The notes under the pieces: generated by a model
Told to the model about the DNA's origin: nothing
What the model saw: only the letters and a program-made list of their open reading frames with translations
Database searches by the model: none
Made by a program: the position numbers and the translations under genes
In this document: piece by piece, positions 2,226 through 25,092 of the stretch
How positions within the stretch are numbered: position 1 is the stretch's first letter
Layout of the letters: each line of letters begins with the position of its first letter
NCBI RefSeq assembly: GCF_039545135.1
Contig: NZ_BAABRU010000004.1
Location: 258,427-322,426 of the forward strand
Reading direction: 5' to 3'
Source: Herpetosiphon gulosus
GTDB lineage: Bacteria > Chloroflexota > Chloroflexia > Chloroflexales > Herpetosiphonaceae
DNA: 64,000 nt

Positions 2226-5200
2226 TCACTTTCGGGGACTCGCTAAACGCTGCCGGACCTGGCTTTGTTGGCCCAACCCTTGGTTGTTTTGGGCCAGAAT
2301 CCGGCGTAAGAGCGCTTCTATTTGGGCGAGGGTCAAGCCGCCTGCCTGAATGGCCACGTTGGTTGGCCCAGCTGCGGCAGCGGTCGGGGGATAGTCACGC
2401 GGCGCAGGCTGCACGAGCGGCGTAGGCGTGACAGTGGGCAGGCGATCGGCACGCGACCGATTGACCCGTTCGGTTTCACTCAGTTTGAGCAGATAGTCAA
2501 TCCCGCCCGCTTTGCGAATGCCATCGGAGCGGGTCGGATCAACAATAATTTCGCGGGCATGGGCTTGCACTACCATATCGCGGGTCAACCCCATGTCACC
2601 CGTGCCTAGGGCATAGCTGGCTTCTACTTTATTGTGGATGGTGAAATCTGCATCCTCACCAGGCGCGGCAGTATTCGTGGGTGCTTGGCCAACGGCGCGG
2701 GAAGCATTGCTCGCAGCGCTGGCCACGAGGCCATAGAGCGCGATCGTGGCATCAGCCCACGTTTGGTGCGCCTGTAATTGCTCGGTTTGCTTATCGAGAA
2801 TCCCGCGCATGGTGTCAGCAAAGTCATCGCGCAGCTTGGCCTGTGCCTCGGTATAGTCGGCGTTCTCGCTGGCCAAGGCTTCATCGCGTTCGGCTTTCAG
2901 GCTATCATTGGCGGTTTCTAAGTCGCTCAGGCGTTTCGCCGCAAGGTCATCCTTAATCTGATCGGCTTTGGCTAACAGTCGCAACTGCTCTTCCAGATCC
3001 GCGCGATCGGCAGCGGTCAAGTCGGCGGTCTCATCGGCCAACTGTTGGCGCAGCTGGCGCATGCGATCAGTGCGTTGCTGATCGGCTTCAATTTCTTCTT
3101 CGGCGGCTTTGAGATAGGCATCGGCCTCTTTGGCGCGACCTGCTTGGGCCATCACTTGGGCTTTATCCCATGCCTCGGTTTGCTTGCGCAGCGCCTCAGC
3201 CCGATCATCTTTGTGCATGCTGGCCACGGATTCGAGGAAATCGGCTTGATCGGCAAACTTCTGGCGATTGAAAGACTGCTCCGCCGCCAAGGCTTTCCGG
3301 TGATAGTCATCCTCGATCTTGCGCACCGTGGCATAGTGATCCCAGGTCAGTCGTTCGGCCTTCTCCTGAAAGTCCTCCTTGGCTTTGGCAATCTTGGCTT
3401 CGGTCTGCTCGGCCTGTTTGATCCGCTGCTCGGCTTCGCGTTGGCTGGCAGATTGGCCACGACTGCCACTCCCACCACCACCACTTCGGCGGGTCGGGGT
3501 GCGAGCCGTGCGCACCCGTTCGGCATTCCGGCGATTAAAGTCTCCCGCTTGGCGTTCGGCCTCGCGTTGCCGCGCCGCTGCGCCTGCTGGATTGACCAAA
3601 TCTTGCGAGCGATCCACGACTGCATCTTTGTATTGCCGCTGATCACGCGGGTCAATGCCCTCGGCACGGAGATCATTGCGTGATGCCGTGGTATTGCGTG
3701 GCAGCTGCGAGGCCCCTTCCATCAAGGCTTTATAGGCCAGCGCATCGCCTGCGGTTTGGGCGGCAGCGGCGAGATCGTAGAGGCTGCTGGTTTCGGCGGC
3801 TAATGCCCCAATATGATCATCGGCAGCCAGTCGCGCGTTTTGGGTCAAGAGTGCAAGGGTTTCTTGCTCCATGCTGGCTTCGATCGTGGCATCGATTTTG
3901 GCGTACAGGCTGTCGGTATGGGCATCGACCGCTGCGGTAAAGTCATCGGTGCTGACCGTGGCTTCGCGGGTGGCACTGGCGACGAGCAGGGTCGCCCCTT
4001 CCAAGCGGGTCAGTTCGATTTCATCTTGGATGACTTGCTGCTCAATTGTATCGAGCGCCTGCTGGTAGAGGGTCGCATCAATCGATCCGGCACTGAAGGC
4101 AAAGGTGGTGGCTTCGACCGCCCCGCGTGCCCGTTCGCTTTTGTCGGACAAGGTATCAGCACGTATCGCTAGCTCCGCAATCGCGGTACTGGAGAGTCCG
4201 GCGGCCTCGGCTTTGCGCACAAAGGAATCGCGCAACCCCCGCACCCGATCCATCGCCGCCTGCGCATCCATGCCTGTTTTGACCAAGGCTTCGGCCAGAT
4301 GATACTGTCGCTCGGTGACCATCCCCTCGGTCGCATCAAGGTCGGTCAAGATTTGGCGATAGGTGGTAAAACTCTTGCCGGATTGAATCGCGCGGTAATC
4401 GACCTCATCCAAGCGCTGCGCAAGGGTGAAATTTTGACTGGTCAGCCGATCGAGCACATCAATGCCTTCGGCAAAGAAGCCCACAATATCGCCAGCAAGG
4501 ACTTTCAGGCTGTTGCCAAAGTTTTGCAGATGCGCTTCGGCACGGGCGATTTTGGCAGCATTCGAATCGACATCCACGCCCACATCGTTGATCATCTGCT
4601 GACCACTCTGCATCACTGCCTGTTGGAAGGCCAACGCCTTCTCTTGATCGGTCAGGGCCATCACGGTTTTGCCCAGTGACGCGGCATACTCCTGATTGGC
4701 TTTGGCCACATCGACCGTGATCCCAAGGTTGTCGATGATCATCTTCGAGTTTCGCGCGAGACCTGTGACGAGCGAATCAAACATGAAGTTGATATCTTCG
4801 CCCGTGGCTTTGGACGCGGCCCGCGCAATCTCTAAGAGTTTCGGCACATCCTTGGCCAAGCGATCGCCAGCCAGCAACACCGCCTTATTGGCCCCAATCA
4901 TCAGATTGGTTTCGCTGATTGTCCCGGCACTGGCCTGTTTCAGCGCTGCCAGATAGGCGGTGCTCGATGTGCCGGATTTGCGGGCAAGGTTGTCGAAGGC
5001 TTCCTCAACCCCTTCGATCGCCGCTCCTTCTTTCCCCCACTGCACCACCTTGCGCACCGCCTCTACCCCGACATAGGCTTTGGCCACGCCCATCAAGCCA
5101 TCAGTGAGGCCACCAAGCGAGCCTTTTGCATCGGTCATGGCGGTGTCGTCGCGGCGCATGGCATCGGCGGCGCTCAGCGTGCGCTGCTCCAGCTGGCGCA

Positions 5201-8433: not shown

Positions 8434-9008
8434 GGCGCAACCACACTTTCCAGAATCGCCAGTTGCTGCTTGGTTAGGCCTGCCACCACCCGCGTCATAC
8501 CCTGCCCATGCACCCCAACGCTATCGATCATGCCGCCCGTGGTGCGCGAGCGATAGAGATTAATCGTCAGCTGGAGCGCCACATCGACGACCGCAGGCGG
8601 CACGGCCCCATAGCCCCAGATCGCCGTAATCCGATAGAGCGCATGATCCGTCCAGCTCGTGGCCCAATAGCCATCCCACACCGCGTCCGCATGCAGCACC
8701 CCACGTGCATCTTCGAGCCATGCATCAGCGGCGAGTGGTTGCCATGCGCTATGCAGCCGTTGCTCAATCAGGCTAATACTGCCAATCACATGCGCGTCGA
8801 GCGTCAAGGTCGGCAGCGGCAACCCCGTGACCACGCGCATCGTGGCCACCGGATTGGGCACAAACTCAAAGGTCGGATCGTGCAGCAGCGCCCGTAAGGC
8901 CGAGCGCACAATATCCGAGGCCCGCACCACATAGGGTTCAATGAGGGCGGGATCGGCGGGGATATCCTCAGACTGGGCTTGGACTTCGGCAACGCTCACA
9001 TACAGCAT
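8421..9008 (-). CDS. phage head-tail connector/adaptor-like protein, 195 aa
   Basis: Position downstream of the capsid gene, similar to gp6-like head-tail adaptors. No strong motif. Confidence 0.35.
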   Translation of the reverse strand: MLYVSVAEVQAQSEDIPADPALIEPYVVRASDIVRSALRALLHDPTFEFVPNPVATMRVVTGLPLPTLTLDAHVIGSISLIEQRLHSAWQPLAADAWLEDARGVLHADAVWDGYWATSWTDHALYRITAIWGYGAVPPAVVDVALQLTINLYRSRTTGGMIDSVGVHGQGMTRVVAGLTKQQLAILESVVAPWRA

Positions 9009-16532: not shown

Positions 16533-17495
16533 TCATGGGTTCAAGATAAAATTTACAACATCTACTGGAAATTCTTCTTGATCTTGAAGATAATAAGTTA
16601 TCCATGTGCTAATACTTTGCTTAAATCTGAGATCCTTTTTTGGCATCAAAGCCTTGTTCGCTTCCGTCTGAGGACTTTCTAAACAAACATTATAGACACA
16701 TTGTGCAAATATAACCCATAGTAAATTAATACCTACGTGTCCATGACAAATCCACCTTAATACTGACGGATCTGTATTATGTACAATATTTTGATATTTA
16801 TCAAAAGAATCTTTTATTTTCTGAATATTTTCAATCGAAAATCCGTTGTTTCTTAAATTTTCCACAAAAATTTCCATATTAAATGATATCTTATCATCTG
16901 ATATATTAAAACAATTAAATGTTATTTGATTAGAAGTTCTATCTATATTATCTGATTCACAACAAACAAAACTTAAAATACAAACATTTACCAATATTGA
17001 AGCGAAAATTTTATTGAATTTAATTGAAGCATCATATCTATATCTAGTATCAGTTATATCTTGAAATACTGATTTTAATATTCTTATATTAAATAGATAA
17101 TTTTCAATAGAATGACCTCTAGACCAAATAATTATACCGTCTCTGTAATGTTTATTAATTTCATCAGTAATCTTTGAGTCAATAGTAAAATTCCTGAATT
17201 CCCTATCAACAAATCCTAAGACTTTCCCTGAACTAATCTTCTCTTCTATTAACTTACAGGCTAATTCAACTTTCATCCTATTACCGTGGACTTCATTTCC
17301 TGAGTTAGAGAACATTTCAGCAGTATCAATAAATATATCTTCTGCTATTGATTCATCTTCTTGGATTTCAGATATGGTATGAATTATCTTCTTAAATGCA
17401 TTCCAATCACTACTACCTTCTACTAGTAAATGTTTTTTATAAGAACTAAACTTTATATAAACAGGATACTCATTTATTTTCATGGGTATTGTCAT
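16533..17495 (-). CDS. AriB-like DUF4435/TOPRIM nuclease (PARIS effector candidate), 320 aa
   Basis: N-terminal HLLVEGSSD motif (the VEGxxD of OLD-type TOPRIM/DUF4435) and a downstream acidic cluster (GFVDREF). About 28 percent GC; 46 nt downstream of an ABC-ATPase gene on the same strand. Confidence 0.6.
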   Translation of the reverse strand: MTIPMKINEYPVYIKFSSYKKHLLVEGSSDWNAFKKIIHTISEIQEDESIAEDIFIDTAEMFSNSGNEVHGNRMKVELACKLIEEKISSGKVLGFVDREFRNFTIDSKITDEINKHYRDGIIIWSRGHSIENYLFNIRILKSVFQDITDTRYRYDASIKFNKIFASILVNVCILSFVCCESDNIDRTSNQITFNCFNISDDKISFNMEIFVENLRNNGFSIENIQKIKDSFDKYQNIVHNTDPSVLRWICHGHVGINLLWVIFAQCVYNVCLESPQTEANKALMPKKDLRFKQSISTWITYYLQDQEEFPVDVVNFILNP

Positions 17496-17541
17496 ATTTT
17501 ATTCCTTTATGGTATTAATTATAAGATTTAAATTTTCAATC

Positions 17542-18882
17542 TTATAATGAGAAGCTAATCTGTCCATGATTTTTATCATATGGTATTTTCTTTATTTCAT
17601 TCATATTATCTATATAGTCTGAAGCTATAAAAGGTGAATGTGTACAAACTATTATTTGTTTATCTCCCATTAACTTTGATATTTTATGTAATAATAATCT
17701 CTGCCAATCAACATGAAGAGATATTTCTGGTTCATCAATAAGGACAACATTCTGTTTGCTCATATAAGTTGTTGCATAAAGAAGTGTTATTATTTGCCTT
17801 TCTCCAGATGATAGTGATTGCAATGGTGCATATGTTTTGTCATTAAATGATGCAACAACTGAGAAATCTATATCATCGTCAATTATCTCAATTTTTTTAT
17901 CTTCCAGAAAGTTATTTACTGCATTTAAATATATTTCTATTTCTTTTAGTGATTTTTTTTGAATATATGCCCTCTCTTTTAATATATCTCTATAAACATT
18001 AAGAATTTTAGCAGTCATAACCTTAGAATCATAATCTACTTGTACTTCTTGTACTTCATTAACCAATCTACGTAATCTCATAATAAAACTATCTGTACTA
18101 TTATGAGGAGTTTGAATAAATGAATCTTCGATACTATCAGAAATTTTCTTTATTTCTTCAAGAATTTCACTTGGTTCTTCTTGTACTTGTAAATGATCTT
18201 TAGATAAAGTGTTAAATATTTCTAAAAAAGCTTGTGTTAATAACTTTTGTTCAGTATCAGCAATTTTTATTCTAGCTCTATATATCTCATAATCTAATCT
18301 CGCCTCTATTTCTATTGGGGAGGGGTAGTATATTTTTGGTACAAATTCACCAAAAGAACTACGTGCAAACTCTGTTAATGTATCTTTTTGCTCTAATCTT
18401 TTTTTACTAACAATTGATCGAGATATTAATCTTACATAATCTGATTTTCTTTTTTTTGTATTTGAGACAGGATTATTCTTACTTATCCATGCCTCAATCA
18501 TTGTTCTAAATGCTGGAAAATAAGCAATGCTTAATAAAGGTGAATCTAATGATGAATTTTTTGGTATATATGAATCAAATTTCTGTGAAGAAAATGATAG
18601 AGTGTTTTTTTCATTTTTATATACTTTTATAATATTTTCATCTGATAAGAATATTATCCTAATTGTTTCATCATTACTCAACAAAACTTTTATTTCTTTG
18701 AAGTCAATAAAACGAAATCTATCAAATTCTTCATTAATTAAGTTTGTTAAGATATGTAATATTGTAGTTTTACCTGCACCATTTTTTCCATATAAAATGT
18801 TAATCCCATCATCAAAGTTTTGAATAATATTATATCTATTATGAATACCATAAGCTTCTAAACGCTTGATATATGTAGACAT
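17542..18882 (-). CDS. AriA-like ABC ATPase (PARIS sensor candidate), 446 aa
   Basis: Walker A (LYGKNGAGKTTILH), signature-like LSSGERQ, Walker B (VVLIDEPEISLH) and H-loop (VCTHSP). Very AT-rich (about 27 percent GC). Confidence 0.65.
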   Translation of the reverse strand: MSTYIKRLEAYGIHNRYNIIQNFDDGINILYGKNGAGKTTILHILTNLINEEFDRFRFIDFKEIKVLLSNDETIRIIFLSDENIIKVYKNEKNTLSFSSQKFDSYIPKNSSLDSPLLSIAYFPAFRTMIEAWISKNNPVSNTKKRKSDYVRLISRSIVSKKRLEQKDTLTEFARSSFGEFVPKIYYPSPIEIEARLDYEIYRARIKIADTEQKLLTQAFLEIFNTLSKDHLQVQEEPSEILEEIKKISDSIEDSFIQTPHNSTDSFIMRLRRLVNEVQEVQVDYDSKVMTAKILNVYRDILKERAYIQKKSLKEIEIYLNAVNNFLEDKKIEIIDDDIDFSVVASFNDKTYAPLQSLSSGERQIITLLYATTYMSKQNVVLIDEPEISLHVDWQRLLLHKISKLMGDKQIIVCTHSPFIASDYIDNMNEIKKIPYDKNHGQISFSL

Positions 18883-18935: not shown

Positions 18936-19958
18936 CTAGTCTTTTATAGCGACAAATGGTACGTGCAAGGCATCAGCCGCAGCTTGTTTGGCTCGCTCAC
19001 CCCGCCGATCATAGCGGCTGGTGGTGTTGGCGTTGCTGTGGCCAGCCAGCCGAGCAACGGTCAAGACATCGGTTCCGGCATCGAGTTGATCACTAATAAA
19101 CGTTCGTCGAATATCGTGTGGGCTGAAATGCCGCACATTCGCTTCTTTGCCACGTCGCTGGCACAAGATATAAATCGCCTGATCACTGAGGCGCTCATAC
19201 ATCTGGCCTGCCACACCACCAGCTTGTAACCGCCAAAACAGTGGCCCTGATTCATCGCCACGCACCGCCAGCCACTCGTCGAGCGCATCACGCGCACCAC
19301 CCCGCACATACGCCGTCCGTACTTTATTGCCCTTCCCGCGAATCGTCAGCATCGCTGTTTCAGGATTGAAGTCGGCCAGATCGAGGTTGACGATCTCCGC
19401 CCGACGCAAACCGCCAGCGGCATAGGCCAGTGCCAAAATTGCTGCATCACGCCGCCCAACGGGGGATGTATCAGCAGCACATGCGGCAAATAAGGCGCGG
19501 AGTTCGGCAGCGGTGAGCGATCGGCCCGCAGCGGCATCGGGTGCGTTCCCTCTGACCGTTTTGAGATCAACCGCTCGCGTGTAGTCTTCCCCTGTCATCA
19601 AGCCCATACGCCACGCCATCTTCAGCACCCCGCGCAAGGCCGAGAGCATGAGGTTGGCGGTGGACGCTGATTTGCTGCTGGCGAGTTTGGCCCACAAAGC
19701 TTGGGTATGTTCAACCCGCAGCTGTGACCATGGAACCGCATGCGCATCGGCAAAGCCCATGATTGTCGCGAGGCTATGCAACTGCTTTTGCATCGTGCGT
19801 TGGCTATTGGCACTTTGCAGACTGGCGATATAGGCAATGAAAGGGTTGGTAGTTGATTGGATTGCGGTTGGCGTGGTTGCTACAAGGGTGGTTAATGTGG
19901 TTGAAAAATCATCGTGCATGCTCGACTCTCCAGCGGTTTGTATAATGTGCATTATCAT
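18936..19958 (-). CDS. tyrosine recombinase/phage integrase
   Basis: C-terminal catalytic signature: ...R..., HDIRRTF (HxxR) and AGHSNANTTSRYDRR (nucleophilic Tyr). 340 aa. Confidence 0.8.
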   Translation of the reverse strand: MIMHIIQTAGESSMHDDFSTTLTTLVATTPTAIQSTTNPFIAYIASLQSANSQRTMQKQLHSLATIMGFADAHAVPWSQLRVEHTQALWAKLASSKSASTANLMLSALRGVLKMAWRMGLMTGEDYTRAVDLKTVRGNAPDAAAGRSLTAAELRALFAACAADTSPVGRRDAAILALAYAAGGLRRAEIVNLDLADFNPETAMLTIRGKGNKVRTAYVRGGARDALDEWLAVRGDESGPLFWRLQAGGVAGQMYERLSDQAIYILCQRRGKEANVRHFSPHDIRRTFISDQLDAGTDVLTVARLAGHSNANTTSRYDRRGERAKQAAADALHVPFVAIKD

Positions 19959-20779: not shown

Positions 20780-21139
20780 CTACGGTTTCTCAGTATGATC
20801 GCACCAGTTGCCATCCGCATCGGTATGGTTGCAGCTCCAAAATTTGTAGGGCTTGCCGCCGCGCCGCGTGCCTTGGCGTAACTGCAAGGGCGTTCCATGG
20901 GTTGGGCAGAGGCGTTGAGCGGGAGCGCTGGGTGGTGCAGCGGCGGCGGTTGGTTGGGCTGGTTGAGCTGGGGGCGTCGTGGGTGGTTGTGCACCGATCG
21001 CTTTCAGGCGATCAATCACGACTTTGAGTTGATCGGCGGTCGCACCTGCCACCGAGGTGGTGCAGGGAAAGCCATCAAGGGTGAAGTGAATCTGGTGCTC
21101 GACTTTGATGCTTGCGAGTGGTGATGCAGTATCAGCCAT
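20780..21139 (-). CDS. zinc-ribbon protein, 119 aa
   Basis: Start MADTASPLASIK with a GAGGAT Shine-Dalgarno. C-terminal CPTHG...WSCNHTDADGNWC four-Cys/His ribbon and a Pro/Ala/Gln linker. Confidence 0.4.
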   Translation of the reverse strand: MADTASPLASIKVEHQIHFTLDGFPCTTSVAGATADQLKVVIDRLKAIGAQPPTTPPAQPAQPTAAAAPPSAPAQRLCPTHGTPLQLRQGTRRGGKPYKFWSCNHTDADGNWCDHTEKP

Positions 21140-22070: not shown

Positions 22071-22112
22071 GGTTCTAACTCCTTGATTATTTATCATCAA
22101 TTATACAACTAG

Positions 22113-22164
22113 TTGACTAAAGATGTCAATCACTAATTGACTAGTTGTCTTGACTACATATAAT
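22113..22164 (+). promoter_or_regulatory. sigma70-like promoter (TTGACT-16-TATAAT) with three direct TTGACTA(A/G/C) operator-like repeats
   Basis: TTGACTAA at 22113, TTGACTAG at 22137 and TTGACTAC at 22150. -35 TTGACT at 22137..22142 and -10 TATAAT at 22159..22164, about 45 nt upstream of the ATG at 22210. Confidence 0.5.
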
Positions 22165-22209
22165 GTACTATGTTGAATGTAGTAAAAAATTAGTAGGTTG
22201 GAATACTTT

Positions 22210-22431
22210 ATGATTTACCTAAGAATTGGCGAGCTGGTGGATGAGCGAGGATGGAATATTCAACGATTCGCGGCAGAAGCTAATCTTGCTTATGGCACAG
22301 CATATGGTTTATACAAGGGTAGGGTAAATAGGATCGACTTAACCACACTTGACAGCATTTGCGAAGCGTTGGGTATCGAGCCAGGTGAAGTATTTGTACG
22401 CGAGCCAAGAACGAAGGAGCCTGCAGAGTAG
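22210..22431 (+). CDS. XRE-family helix-turn-helix transcriptional regulator (HTH1), 73 aa
   Basis: MIYLRIGELVDERGWNIQRFAAEANLAYGTAYGLYKG... Cro/C1-type HTH. A paralog of the gene at 24347. Confidence 0.6.
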   Translation: MIYLRIGELVDERGWNIQRFAAEANLAYGTAYGLYKGRVNRIDLTTLDSICEALGIEPGEVFVREPRTKEPAE

Positions 22432-22532
22432 CAGAAGATTGAGAGATGATAACTAGAATCAAAGGATTATCAATCTAAGATCTTGCGAACCAAGTAATCG
22501 AAAGTTTCAATAATTAGACCTTGGAGGAGTAT

Positions 22533-24266
22533 ATGCTTATTGACGGAATTGCGCTATCTAACTATAGGAGTTTTGGAGAAGAACTACAGTTTATCGGTCC
22601 ATTTCAAAAAATGAACATTATTGTAGGACAAAACAATGTAGGGAAGTCTAATATAATTTTATTTATTAAAGATCATTATAGAGCATTTGCAAATGCAATA
22701 AAAAATGATATGTCAAAAGAAATAAAGTTTACTGATATAGATTCAAATAATAGATCAGGTAATAAAAATATGCGTTTCGGATTCGGATTGAATTTATCTA
22801 AAGATAAATTCAATCATTACACTAATAGACTTTCTTTAGGCGAAAATGAAAAAAATACAATATCTATATTAGAAAATATAATAAAATCCGATCTTTTCAC
22901 TTACAATGATGAAATTTCATGGGTTATATTTGAATATGAAAATAATCATTTTAAGATTATCAATAAAGATTTCAGCTACTATCAAAAAATTAATCCTTCT
23001 CTTTGGAATCATCTGTGGAATAGATTTACAAAATTCAATGGTAGCACTTATGATATATGGATAAAAGAAACAATATCGATATTAAATAAATCAATTATTA
23101 ATAATATACCCAAAATTGTATTTATTCCCGCTATTAGACAAATAAATAAAGATATACAAAGCAGTTATGAATATGGTGGTATTGGGATAATAAAACGTTT
23201 ATCTGAATTACAAAACCCTTTATTAAATGAACAAGGTAATATAGATATTTTCCGAAACATTAATGAATTTTTACGTGAAATTACTAATAATAAAAATGCA
23301 TCCATCGAAATACCACATGACCGTAGTGATATTTATGTTCGTATTGATAATATACCTTTGCCAATAAATTCACTAGGTACCGGAATTCATGAAGTTATTA
23401 TTCTCGCAATTGCGGCAACTACGTTAGAAAATACTGTTATATGTATAGAAGAACCAGAGATACATTTACATCCTGTATTGCAACGTAAACTAATACACTA
23501 TCTGTATACAAAAACTAATAATCAGTATTTTATTACTACACATTCAGCACACGTTGTTGATGCTGAAAAAGCTGCGATTTTTCATGTAAGATTAGTTGAT
23601 GGATATTCTAAAGTTGAATCAGTCAAGGATGCTCCTGAATTAGCATCTGTTTGTTATGATCTTGGTTATCGACCTTCAGATATTTTGCAATCTAACTGTA
23701 TCATCTGGGTCGAAGGGCCATCTGATAGGATATATCTTAATTATTGGATTAATTTTCTAGACTCCTCTCTAATAGAAGGATTACATTACTCAATCATGTT
23801 TTATGGAGGAAAGCTATTAAGTCACCTATCAGGAAATGATCCTGACATAGAAGAGTTTATATCATTACGTCGTATGAATCGTTTCATATCAATCATAATA
23901 GATAGTGATAAAAATAATCGACAGAAACCTATTAGTTCAACAAAAAAGCGAATTCAAATAGAATTTGATAAAGGGCCTGGATTTGCGTGGATAACTCAGG
24001 GCCGTGAAATTGAAAATTATATTGCAGATGATATCTATCAAGCGATTTTAAAAGCCAATTATCCAAAATTTAATTCTACATCTTCTATGGGGCAATATGA
24101 TAATCGATTGAAATTCACATCCATTGACGGTAAACCTTCAACAACAATCAAAAAAGTTGAATTTGCTCAAAAAATTATACCTTATCCAGTGAATCTTGAT
24201 GTACTAGACTTAAAGAAACAGATGAAAAGATTATTGGCATTCATTAAGGAGGCAAATGATTTATAG
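22533..24266 (+). CDS. OLD-family nuclease (fused ABC ATPase plus TOPRIM), about 577 aa
   Basis: Walker A (IVGQNNVGKSNII), Walker B (ICIEEPEIHLHP), H-loop (ITTHSAHV). TOPRIM motifs WVEGPSD and IIIDSDKNN. About 30 percent GC. Start taken at the ATG preceded by GGAGGA (the ORF track begins at an upstream TTG). Confidence 0.75.
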   Translation: MLIDGIALSNYRSFGEELQFIGPFQKMNIIVGQNNVGKSNIILFIKDHYRAFANAIKNDMSKEIKFTDIDSNNRSGNKNMRFGFGLNLSKDKFNHYTNRLSLGENEKNTISILENIIKSDLFTYNDEISWVIFEYENNHFKIINKDFSYYQKINPSLWNHLWNRFTKFNGSTYDIWIKETISILNKSIINNIPKIVFIPAIRQINKDIQSSYEYGGIGIIKRLSELQNPLLNEQGNIDIFRNINEFLREITNNKNASIEIPHDRSDIYVRIDNIPLPINSLGTGIHEVIILAIAATTLENTVICIEEPEIHLHPVLQRKLIHYLYTKTNNQYFITTHSAHVVDAEKAAIFHVRLVDGYSKVESVKDAPELASVCYDLGYRPSDILQSNCIIWVEGPSDRIYLNYWINFLDSSLIEGLHYSIMFYGGKLLSHLSGNDPDIEEFISLRRMNRFISIIIDSDKNNRQKPISSTKKRIQIEFDKGPGFAWITQGREIENYIADDIYQAILKANYPKFNSTSSMGQYDNRLKFTSIDGKPSTTIKKVEFAQKIIPYPVNLDVLDLKKQMKRLLAFIKEANDL

Positions 24267-24288
24267 ATTTCGATCTTCTATTTTCTTC

Positions 24289-24338
24289 TTGACAAAGAGA
24301 ATCCTATAGGGTAGTATCCTTGCTACCAAACCTATAGG
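24289..24338 (+). promoter_or_regulatory. promoter (TTGACA-17-TAGTAT) with two CCTATAGG palindromic operators
   Basis: -35 at 24289..24294 and -10 at 24312..24317. Palindrome CCTATAGG at 24303..24310 and at 24331..24338, with a third copy near 24681. The ATG is at 24347. Confidence 0.5.
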
Positions 24339-24346
24339 GGGTTAGC

Positions 24347-24589
24347 ATGGTTATTCGGTTCAAAATCCAAGAAATTGCAGAGCAAAAAGGTATTGTTACT
24401 GCGGCTGAGTTAGCTCGAGAAGCTAAGATTGGCCAAGCAACAGCCTACTCGCTCTGGAATAACAACAGATCCGATGCTAATTATTCAACACTGCTTGTAA
24501 TTGGCAAAGTTCTTGGTGTAAAACCTGATGACTTGGTAGAAGTAAATGAAGACGAAAAAATAGAACTAGCTCATCTTACAGCAGCCTAA
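24347..24589 (+). CDS. XRE-family helix-turn-helix transcriptional regulator (HTH2), 80 aa
   Basis: MVIRFKIQEIAEQKGIVTAAELAREAKIGQATAYSLWNN...; same architecture as HTH1. Confidence 0.6.
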   Translation: MVIRFKIQEIAEQKGIVTAAELAREAKIGQATAYSLWNNNRSDANYSTLLVIGKVLGVKPDDLVEVNEDEKIELAHLTAA

Positions 24590-24613
24590 AAACCTGCAAG
24601 ATGAGCTAGTTCT
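24563..24613 (+). terminator. hairpin (15-bp perfect stem GAACTAGCTCATCTT/AAGATGAGCTAGTTC) spanning the HTH2 stop codon
   Basis: Inverted repeat read directly from the sequence, followed by TATTTGTGG. Candidate intrinsic terminator or regulatory hairpin. Confidence 0.4.
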
Positions 24614-24920
24614 ATTTGTGGTAAAAACTGAAGGTGTTTTGCCGACGCTCACCAGTCTTACCACGATAAGCTCGTTACCCCTATAGGAGCAACGCACCTT
24701 ACCAATTGAATAAATAAAGGGGACAAGATTCTTGGCAAGCTGAGACAGTTTTATGAATGGTAGTTATTGATGCGACCGCTGCCAGTTGTCCAGATCAGGA
24801 ATACGGTGGTTACCCCTGATTGTATTGATACCAAGCGACTGTGTTTGACGCAGTGCTTTTATTTTTTGTGCTTAATCGACAAACGCCCACATGATTACTC
24901 AGATGGACGCTTGTCGGTTG

Positions 24921-24996
24921 TGGCTCCCTGACTAGGACTCGAACCTAGGACATGCTGATTAACAGTCAACCGCTCTACCAACTGAGCTATCAGGGA
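24921..24996 (-). tRNA. tRNA-Asn (GTT)
   Basis: Reverse complement TCCCTGATAGCTCAGTTGGTAGAGCGGTTGACTGTTAATCAGC...GGTTCGAGTCC...GGGAGCCA folds as a cloverleaf. Anticodon loop CTGTTAA; encoded CCA. Coordinates are within about 1 nt. Confidence 0.85.
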
Positions 24997-25016: not shown

Positions 25017-25092
25017 TGGCTCCCTGACTAGGACTCGAACCTAGGACCCATTGATTAACAGTCAATTGCTCTACCAACTGAGCTATCAGGGA
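25017..25092 (-). tRNA. tRNA-Asn (GTT), second tandem copy
   Basis: Near-identical to the first copy, with differences in the anticodon stem and variable region (CAATTGACTGTTAATCAATGGG); encoded CCA. Confidence 0.85.

Follow-up and report, generated by a model that had tools for sequence, protein, structure and literature searches.

The question raised by a locus of the Herpetosiphon gulosus genome is why a gene for a putative nuclease of the OLD family stands between two small genes for helix-turn-helix (HTH) regulators, called HTH1 and HTH2 here. The locus lies in a window of 64,000 nucleotides (nt), the whole stretch of DNA that was analyzed (contig NZ_BAABRU010000004.1 of assembly GCF_039545135.1, positions 258,427–322,426 of the forward strand). 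An earlier reading of this DNA (the original prediction) had taken the HTH-OLD-HTH order for a dedicated, transcriptionally gated nuclease module; the sequence features that it described between 22100 and 24620 were all found in place or close to it. The explanation that we consider probable is that a stand-alone, Class-1-type OLD nuclease is carried as moron cargo behind HTH1 in the lysogeny operon of a prophage, where it would act as a defence gene. The bracket of HTH genes around it appears to be ordinary phage regulatory architecture.

The OLD protein was identical to the database protein P0001 of H. gulosus (100% match) and comprised an ABC ATPase, from amino acid (aa) 1 to ~360, followed by a TOPRIM domain (aa ~362–577). 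The ATPase was recognized by Pfam (AAA_15, 5.4e-23; AAA_21, 7.7e-21) and carried the Walker A motif GQNNVGKS (K38), the Walker B/D-loop CIEEPEIHLH and the H-loop TTHS; the translation of the TOPRIM contained WVEGPSD (aa 392–398) and IIIDSDKNN (aa 454–462). Residues G37-K38-S39, E306-E307, H311/H313 and H337 of the ATPase were invariant in an alignment of 32 sequences of the family, as were E394, D398, D457, D459 and E494 of the TOPRIM, and E492 was conserved in at least 90% of them. The two-metal ligand set of OLD nucleases was present by motif order and spacing. In TsOLD, metal A is bound by E377/D431/D433 and metal B by D381/S478/E480 (PMC7049728), and the P2 ligands (E398/E402/D453/D455/D541/E543) are of parallel order and spacing; the equivalence with both proteins was drawn from motif order, not from residue-by-residue superposition.

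An AlphaFold (AF2) model of the full-length protein, built on 32 homologues, reached a mean pLDDT of 81. Its best end-to-end matches in Foldseek were GajA and the retron Eco8 OLD protein (E ~1e-12), and further matches included PtuA, Rad50 and SMC heads; the C-terminal TOPRIM fold of the OLD type, for which the original prediction had proposed a modelling check, was seen in the predicted structure. In a search of PDB sequences, the N-terminal ~350 residues weakly matched the ATPases of PtuA, TsOLD and AriA. PADLOC returned partial matches to GajA (87 bits), ATPase-Toprim_I-B (77), Old (62) and AriAB (58), and those in NCBIfam were far under their cut-offs. Since the PADLOC matches were partial and modest and those of NCBIfam far too low, the protein belongs to no curated subfamily. 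Pfam, PADLOC and the structural model agreed in supporting its assignment as a predicted fusion of an ABC ATPase and a two-metal TOPRIM nuclease of the OLD family.

The classes of OLD systems are defined by gene context (PMC10568477). The neighbors of the OLD gene in the window were two genes of the HTH_26 family, with no UvrD/GajB helicase adjoining; downstream, the 80-aa HTH_26 gene was followed by tRNA-Asn, so that there was no GajB as in Class 2 (Gabija), and no reverse transcriptase open reading frame (ORF), the mark of retron I-B (Class 3), was found within 22–25 kb. A stand-alone, Class-1-like status, as had been predicted, was supported by this contextual definition. Like the Class 1 proteins P2 Old, TsOLD of Thermus scotoductus (6P74) and Vibrio cholerae Vc OLD, the protein is a single chain (~530–590 aa in this class) with an insert-bearing ABC ATPase at its N-terminus and a TOPRIM domain at the C-terminal end, stands without helicase, reverse transcriptase or split partner and follows the ligand order E-x3-D/E ... 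DxD ... [S/T/D/E]xE. It shares with P2 old a prophage-borne position in a variable locus, and the old locus of P2 is one of the defence hotspots (PMC10568477). It departs from Class 1 in its very low sequence similarity (phmmer to TsOLD, E 0.002, ATPase domain alone), in a TOPRIM below the Pfam cut-off, in a PADLOC score for Old of just 62 bits and in the motif VEGPSD, where the fourth position is more usually acidic. GajA of Gabija gave the top full-length structural matches and the top PADLOC family score, but no helicase like GajB/UvrD stands beside OLD here and none recurred among the neighbors of 80 relatives.

The closest homologue, P0002 (60% identity), was found on the metagenomic contig L081. 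A hypervariable insert in the ATPase domain (aa ~51–240) was 20–40% identical between the two alleles, against 86% over aa 1–50, 70–90% over aa 270–500 and ~90% in the flanking DNA, and the same region was the variable part of the 32-sequence alignment. Judged from this pattern, it is likely to be a sensor or specificity region. Its hypervariability suggests diversifying selection or allele replacement.

The regulatory setting of OLD was read from HTH1 and the DNA in front of it. The 137-bp region between HTH1 and the divergent 165-aa gene, which probably starts at ATG 22072 with AAGGAG in front, contained two back-to-back consensus promoter-like sites, P_L leftward and P_R rightward. The original prediction had given each HTH gene a promoter, and promoter-like sites were seen for both; the leftward P_L, matching 12 of 12 consensus positions, had gone unmentioned. 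The central GTCAAT of P_L was kept in five of six aligned loci (GCCAAT in L090). Candidate operators for HTH1 (O1–O3) overlap both promoters, with the repeated unit ACTAGTTG(AC) at 22108, 22132 and 22140, and CTAG-centred operators were kept in L081, L096, L092 and L090. In six aligned loci, the helix LAYGTAYGLY (window, L081, L096/97, L092 and L090) went with ACAACTAGTTG / ACTAGTTG, which were kept in L092 and L090 even though HTH1 is 69–73% identical there and the surroundings are unrelated. The helix LSYPTAYGLY (L093, L094 and L091) went with AAATCTAGCTTT / AAGCTAGATTT at matching positions, and the candidate operator of this second group (group B) was AAATCTAGCTTTA. The covariation of operator and recognition helix is good evidence, at the level of sequence comparison, that HTH1 would bind CTAG-centred palindromes.

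A triple TTGACTA had been proposed as the operator of HTH1. The three copies are indeed present, within 44 bp (22113, 22137 and 22150), and this clustering is the notable part, as the count for the window (seven against 4.3 expected) was not significant; the copy at 22137 is the −35 box of P_R. As the operator unit TTGACTA was rejected, for it was neither kept in L092 and L090 nor covariant with the helix, whereas the CTAG palindrome (CAACTAGTTG / ACTAGTTG) was both. The divergent promoter region of contig L083 (6841–6971) contained other repeats (TATAGAATATAG, GTATAGAAC and TCTATATG) and another first rightward gene (88 aa), with the HTH1-like gene second behind it and without CTAG operators, which speaks for a third type of immunity among these prophages.

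From its candidate operators, HTH1 looks like the phage's own switch regulator. Rightward of P_R there were solely HTH1, OLD and HTH2 before the prophage end, and since the lytic genes all run leftward the rightward unit is most simply a lysogeny-maintenance operon. OLD is probably co-transcribed with HTH1 in the lysogen, because the 101-nt gap between them contained neither a terminator-like nor a good promoter-like site. OLD cargo was found with both types of helix and operator, which argues against a specific partnership of HTH1 and OLD.

Comparison with related prophages, a small sample of about a dozen loci that are mostly short metagenomic contigs, placed OLD in a variable slot. Protein searches with HTH1 and HTH2 in 5.8 billion sequences found only five relatives each, and no match was confirmed when viral and metagenome contigs were scanned for HTH1 relatives with degenerate patterns. 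The order HTH_26 - OLD - HTH_26 was present in L081, and a partial contig (L082) showed OLD - HTH2 - tRNA-Asn. In nucleotide sequence, L081 and the window were ~90% identical over the integrase and over a backbone stretch that begins at 20781 and takes in the first 150 nt of OLD; across the sister loci the 3′ two-thirds of OLD were 82% and the HTH2 block ~100% identical. Because the ~90% identical backbone is shared, the common gene order reflects descent and not independent assembly. The original prediction had asked for a search for this order in other genomes; it was found only in these near-identical prophages, and other members of the family swap the cargo.

The homologues of HTH1 (64–97% identity) preceded different cargo. 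Contigs L083, L084 and L094 had the integrase and the 165-aa gene as in the window but no OLD, and their right side held an HTH1-like gene (88% in L083), a 142-aa double-HTH gene, an HTH2-like gene (77–82%) and a further HTH gene. In L091 the 165-aa gene was accompanied by a truncated HTH1-like gene, a 286-aa protein without family match and an 83-aa HTH protein; in L092 the HTH1-like gene (73%) was followed by a 211-aa HNH nuclease, and in L093 (85%) by a different allele of OLD, whose N-terminal 238 aa were 48% identical. An OLD allele also stood beside a 97%-identical HTH1 in L096/L097. In these two contigs, which may come from one biosample, the OLD frame shifts after about residue 50 in an A/T-rich run, with the identical break in both (L096 1463–1950; L097 842–1205); the cause may be pseudogene formation, an error in the assembly or phase variation. 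The left cargo junction lies ~14 nt past the HTH1 stop codon, where L081 and L083 share TAGCGGAGGATTGA and then diverge. The gene that belongs to the backbone is thus HTH1, and behind it OLD represents one insert among several alternatives. Since it shares this slot with an HNH nuclease and other cargo, a defence role for OLD is supported.

The cargo was found downstream of a repressor-like gene, co-oriented with it and in a variable slot, as in repressor-linked morons. The bstA and rexAB genes lie downstream of a repressor gene in a mosaic hotspot (PMC8585504). The comparison of this locus with rexAB next to cI, drawn in the original prediction, held good in the divergent promoters and in the alternative cargo after HTH1. 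As in lambda cI-rexAB and BTP1 cI-bstA, the cargo comes directly after a small HTH gene of repressor-like kind and is oriented like it, no terminator being predicted between the two, the divergent promoter region carries operators (candidate ones here) and the slot is a mosaic hotspot. The locus differs in its effector (OLD instead of RexAB or BstA), in its host (Chloroflexota), in the 73-aa HTH1, which has no C-terminal domain, and in the second HTH gene with its own promoter after the cargo. The prophages also resemble the P2/P4 defence hotspots (Rousset et al., 2022), in which the defence genes at a given fixed position differ between related prophages; the present family has two positions of this kind, one after HTH1 and one left of the integrase, although in another phage lineage and host phylum and in only about a dozen loci. 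Immediately left of the integrase, the window holds the PARIS pair and L083 (1755–4026) a 504-aa candidate defence protein of the PDC-M11A family (E 1e-208) with a 187-aa unknown protein; the genes at this position in L081 (1–1406) are sized as in L083, a comparison by size alone.

The mechanism that we propose is modelled on characterized relatives. OLD would occupy the variable slot ~14 nt past HTH1 at the tRNA-Asn-proximal end of the prophage. Bound to the CTAG palindromes, HTH1 would repress the leftward promoter, and with it the integrase and structural genes, and would limit its own rightward promoter. In the lysogen OLD would be co-transcribed with HTH1, in the manner of rexAB behind lambda cI and of bstA behind BTP1 cI. 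Infection by a competing phage would lead the ATPase domain, probably through the insert as its sensor, to release the TOPRIM nuclease for cleavage of nucleic acid, either by DNA nicking as in Vc OLD and GajA or by tRNA cleavage as in P2 Old and AriB.

Several points weigh against this proposal. No defence test of any member of the OLD clade was found in the searched literature. When the C-terminal ~230 residues were scanned alone, Pfam OLD-like_TOPRIM (PF20469) stayed at 17.7 bits (E 0.005), below its cut-off of 23.2, and an hmmsearch of the C-terminal profile against PDB sequences gave no OLD or other relevant match; since the domain was not recognized at the sequence level, the TOPRIM assignment is that of the predicted structure, and with the isolated domain Foldseek ranked AriB first, weakly (E 0.012). 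Co-transcription from P_R was read only from the absence of predicted signals in the 101-nt gap. HTH1, with its 73 aa, would make a small lysogeny repressor and may instead be Cro-like, in which case OLD would be expressed early in the lytic cycle and not in the lysogen. Furthermore, OLD was followed by HTH2 in all three loci whose right side was visible, with the HTH2 block ~100% identical, which leaves some room for a local link between the two genes.

HTH2 is apparently a self-repressing, separate module, to judge from its promoter. The palindrome CCTATAGG occurred in the 64 kb only at 24303, 24331 and 24680, against 0.34 expected and with three reached in 0/100 shuffles; among the 97 fetched loci it was confined to the HTH2 promoters and two unrelated singles. 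The promoter region was identical in L081, and L082 had one substitution between the palindromes; both were kept in these loci, but so was nearly every base of the block. The CCTATAGG palindromes had been predicted at the −10 and leader of HTH2, where they are present; only two of the three copies were conserved, and the one at 24680 was rejected as a third operator, the sister loci reading CCTATACG / CCTATAAG there. Since CCTATAGG is confined to HTH2's own promoter, with none near OLD, there was no sign of HTH2 acting on OLD. The two HTH genes, described as paralogous, are HTH_26 family-mates, but at 27% identity (E 4e-6) the term was too strong. The HTH2 protein was 100% conserved in L081 and L082. 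From 24287 to 24640 the window, L081 and L082 were ~100% identical in nucleotide sequence while the adjoining OLD was ~82% identical, and the identity changes abruptly a little upstream of the −35 box, which suggests that the block was exchanged recently by recombination.

Homologues of HTH2 (58–82% identity) occurred without OLD. The HTH2-like gene of L083-type prophages had no promoter of its own, and on the P0125 contig and in L087-89 such genes faced away from a leftward gene, at the place where an immunity repressor would stand. The 142-aa protein of L083 (7534–7962) and L094 (584–1012) is an in-frame fusion of an HTH1-like (45%) and an HTH2-like domain (59–62%), the second starting at Met77; it may hint, in the Rosetta-stone manner, at cooperation of the two HTH types, or else be a scar left when cargo between two HTH genes was lost. 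A tentative reading, which we hold to be rather unlikely, is that the tRNA-proximal arm is a stockpile of superinfection weapons, made up of nucleases and of repressor modules captured from heteroimmune relatives. HTH2 would then possibly serve as a second immunity repressor, regulating itself and silencing incoming phages with CCTATAGG-like operators, and not a regulator of OLD. It is hinted at by the second-place HTH1-like gene of L083 without CTAG operators, by the divergent immunity position of HTH2-like genes and by the fusion of both types in one protein.

The dedicated module of the original prediction, in which HTH1 and/or HTH2 gate a toxic OLD or act as its antitoxin-like partners and move with it as one cassette, is improbable. 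Toxic defence genes commonly have small XRE-type regulators upstream, the order of the three genes is repeated in L081 and in part in L082, L093 and L096/97, the GC content of the HTH genes (HTH1 47%, HTH2 40%) is intermediate between the backbone (53–56%) and OLD (29%), and the constant succession of OLD and the HTH2 block, seen in three samples, would fit such a cassette. The loci of like order share the ~90% identical backbone, however, and hence descend from one ancestor. HTH1-like genes precede an HNH nuclease, the 286-aa protein or other HTH genes instead, and HTH2-like genes are found without OLD; the HTH1 operators straddle divergent phage promoters and not an OLD-specific one, and CCTATAGG is found only at HTH2's own promoter.

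The bracket was also missing from distant relatives of OLD. A word-indexed protein search gave more than 5,800 matches at E<=1e-5, most of those listed being 43–48% identical, full-length and ~570–620 aa long. At E<=1e-30 there were 2,524 cluster representatives (50% identity), nearly all of 560–630 aa among the matches listed, and at least 576 genomic loci were confirmed. The clade is large, unnamed and horizontally mobile across many phyla and plasmids, and its database label is 'AAA family ATPase' only. Gene neighborhoods were compared in the best 80 of the at least 576 confirmed loci in species-representative genomes (37–47% identity; Acidobacteriota, Nitrospirota, Cyanobacteria, Planctomycetota, Pseudomonadota, Bacteroidota and others), plus two plasmid copies. 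The HTH-OLD-HTH order was found in 0/80 of these loci and 0/2 of the plasmid copies. The nearest ORFs varied freely in size and orientation, and Pfam searches of 74 upstream and 73 downstream neighbors gave a heterogeneous set with no recurrent partner, among them specificity (S) subunits of restriction-modification systems, toxin-antitoxin genes, integrases, transposases and housekeeping enzymes. No recurrent helicase or reverse transcriptase was seen among the 80 loci and two plasmid copies, in keeping with the predicted absence of a UvrD/GajB partner. At most one relative, besides the window's own gene, had an HTH neighbor, and when HTH1 and HTH2 were compared by phmmer with every ORF of the 80 loci, only one weak match resulted (L015, 760 bp upstream). 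The plasmid copies lay between insertion sequence (IS) elements or beside unrelated genes, and the relatives were more than 5 GC points under their flanks in 66/73 loci (median difference −11.6). A tblastn search against sequenced phages gave three partial, uninformative matches (29–32% identity). On Burkholderia glumae plasmids (L099 1173–4749, NZ_CP023206.1), a 37%-identical relative is preceded by a co-oriented gene for an AAA family ATPase, and the pair may be a two-gene variant of the family.

Another explanation, distinctly improbable, would make the protein a fused PARIS (Class 4, AriAB), a single-chain AriA-AriB that senses anti-restriction proteins, cleaves tRNA and duplicates the split pair 3.6 kb away. 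That pair, which the original prediction had called PARIS-like, was recognized as such by PADLOC. With PARIS the OLD protein shares the joining of an ABC ATPase and a TOPRIM with a first motif of the VEGxSD type, which resembles VEGSSD of the window AriB and not VEGxxE of many OLD proteins; ENY is also shared, PADLOC AriAB was partially matched, the isolated C-terminal domain drew AriB in Foldseek, and fused AriAB proteins exist, with an unsettled class status (PMC11464382; PMC10568477). The protein had no match to Pfam DUF4435, however, the sole match being the weak one to OLD-like_TOPRIM. BLASTP and hhalign (probability 0.4%) of the C-terminal domain against the window AriB gave nothing significant beyond VEGxSD and ENY, and the PADLOC scores for GajA and Old equal or exceed that for AriAB.

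The weakest alternative, an OLD-like enzyme of phage DNA replication, recombination or packaging, or else a selfish or decaying passenger, is highly improbable. In its favour, DNA maintenance is the role of some OLD-family and TOPRIM proteins, the L096/L097 allele appears frameshifted and the searched literature gave no defence experiment on the clade. Against it, the phage family can do without OLD, as other members have unrelated cargo at that place, the gene is found on its own, beside restriction-modification, toxin-antitoxin and IS genes, in chromosomes and plasmids from many phyla, its hypervariable insert is typical of arms-race genes, and the characterized OLD-family proteins considered all act in phage defence or interference.

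Table 1. Features of the prophage and of the HTH1-OLD-HTH2 region, in window coordinates.
Feature	Position	Strand	Remarks
Phage structural genes	1 to ~14,000	−	PHROGs
PARIS-like AriB/AriA pair, AT-rich	16533–18882		PADLOC AriA 110 bits, AriB 66 bits
Tyrosine integrase	18936–19958		Pfam
Small leftward genes, integrase side	reaching 22072	−	
First gene of leftward operon, 165 aa	21573..22072	−	No Pfam or PHROG match
P_L promoter-like site	22129->22100	−	TTGACA-18-TATAAT, 12/12
Candidate HTH1 operators O1–O3	22106..22147		Repeat family D1
O1	22106–22115		CAACTAGTTG, perfect 10-bp palindrome in P_L spacer
O2	22132–22139		ACTAATTG, overlaps P_R −35
O3	22140–22147		ACTAGTTG, in P_R −35/spacer
P_R promoter-like site	22137..22164	+	TTGACT-16-TATAAT, 11/12
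HTH1, 73-aa HTH_26 regulator (PF13443, Cro/CI-type)	22210..22431	+	Pfam 2.7e-14
HTH1-OLD leader, 101 nt	22432..22532	+	No terminator-like or good promoter-like site
OLD-family nuclease, 577 aa	22533..24266	+	ORF 22521–24266; likely ATG 22533, 8 nt past GGAGGAG
Hypervariable insert in ATPase domain, aa ~51–240	22683..23252	+	
TOPRIM nuclease domain	23616..24266	+	Predicted ligands E394 (23712–23714), D398, D457/D459 (23901–23909), E492/E494
HTH2 promoter-like site	24289..24317	+	TTGACA-17-TAGTAT; two CCTATAGG palindromes, region to 24338
CCTATAGG copy 1	24303–24310		Spacer, beside −10
CCTATAGG copy 2	24331–24338		Leader, overlaps ribosome-binding site
HTH2, 80-aa HTH_26 regulator (PF13443), own promoter	24347..24589	+	Pfam 2.7e-10
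Hairpin, 24-bp arms	24558..24617		Overlaps HTH2 stop codon; dG −37 kcal/mol, z −8.5
Two tandem tRNA-Asn(GTT) genes, 20 nt apart	24921–24996, 25017–25092	−	3′ ends toward prophage

The remaining features of the window (Table 1) are those of a prophage, in which major head (5.7e-78), portal and TerL genes were recognized with PHROGs. OLD forms an AT-rich island in it, as had been noted, with a GC content of 28.9% against 53–56% in the adjoining prophage genes and 50% in the host (~50% in the host genes beyond the tRNA-Asn pair); that of the PARIS-like pair is 27%. Orthologues of the 165-aa gene were found at the same place in L081, L083 and L091, 93–94% identical to one another. The tandem tRNA-Asn pair is the probable integration region. 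Within the window, no second repeat of the tRNA-Asn 3′ end that could serve as an att site was found beyond the two tRNA genes, nor was a second copy of the 24-bp hairpin arm, and the prophage ends are undefined for this reason. An Rfam scan gave tRNAs only, with no retron non-coding RNA or other regulatory RNA; a sub-threshold match to YrlA (35.7 bits against 69) across both tRNA-Asn genes is most likely a tRNA-like artefact.

The hairpin at the end of HTH2 opens the block kept up to the tRNA, which is common to all right-arm variants. On the minus strand six U in a row come after its stem, and by sequence it resembles an intrinsic terminator for the tRNA-Asn direction. The left arm codes for the last 10 residues of HTH2, KIELAHLTAA. 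An unrelated 83-aa HTH gene also ends in the hairpin arm, with an identical tail in L083 (~8600–8680) and a tail that differs after KIELAHL in L091, where the 26-nt hairpin centre (loop and inner stem) is inverted relative to the window (~4060–4130). The hairpin may be a recombination or attachment boundary. Exact-pattern scans for its arms in viral and metagenome contigs gave 0 matches. In L085 (440–500; also L086–L089), an HTH2-like 88-aa gene (73%) in another context ends in a strong hairpin of different sequence, which is again followed by TATTTGTG; this suggests that a gene-end hairpin is a conserved feature of this type of HTH gene.

The window gene and its slot are an instance of already known patterns, a fairly ordinary arrangement, and extend those of the defence gene behind a repressor and of the prophage hotspot to phages of Chloroflexota. 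Class 1 is the least understood OLD class, with defence phenotypes in the searched literature only for P2 Old, Vc OLD and, recently, YbjD. The gene represents a clade of at least 2,500 clusters (50% identity) in many phyla and plasmids, nearly always AT-richer than its surroundings, which PADLOC (2023) models match weakly and partially and whose TOPRIM escapes the Pfam cut-off. This clade may be an unrecognized, very large group of stand-alone OLD proteins with a hypervariable sensor insert, apparently missed by defence-finder models, and the insert provides a natural allelic series for studies of specificity.

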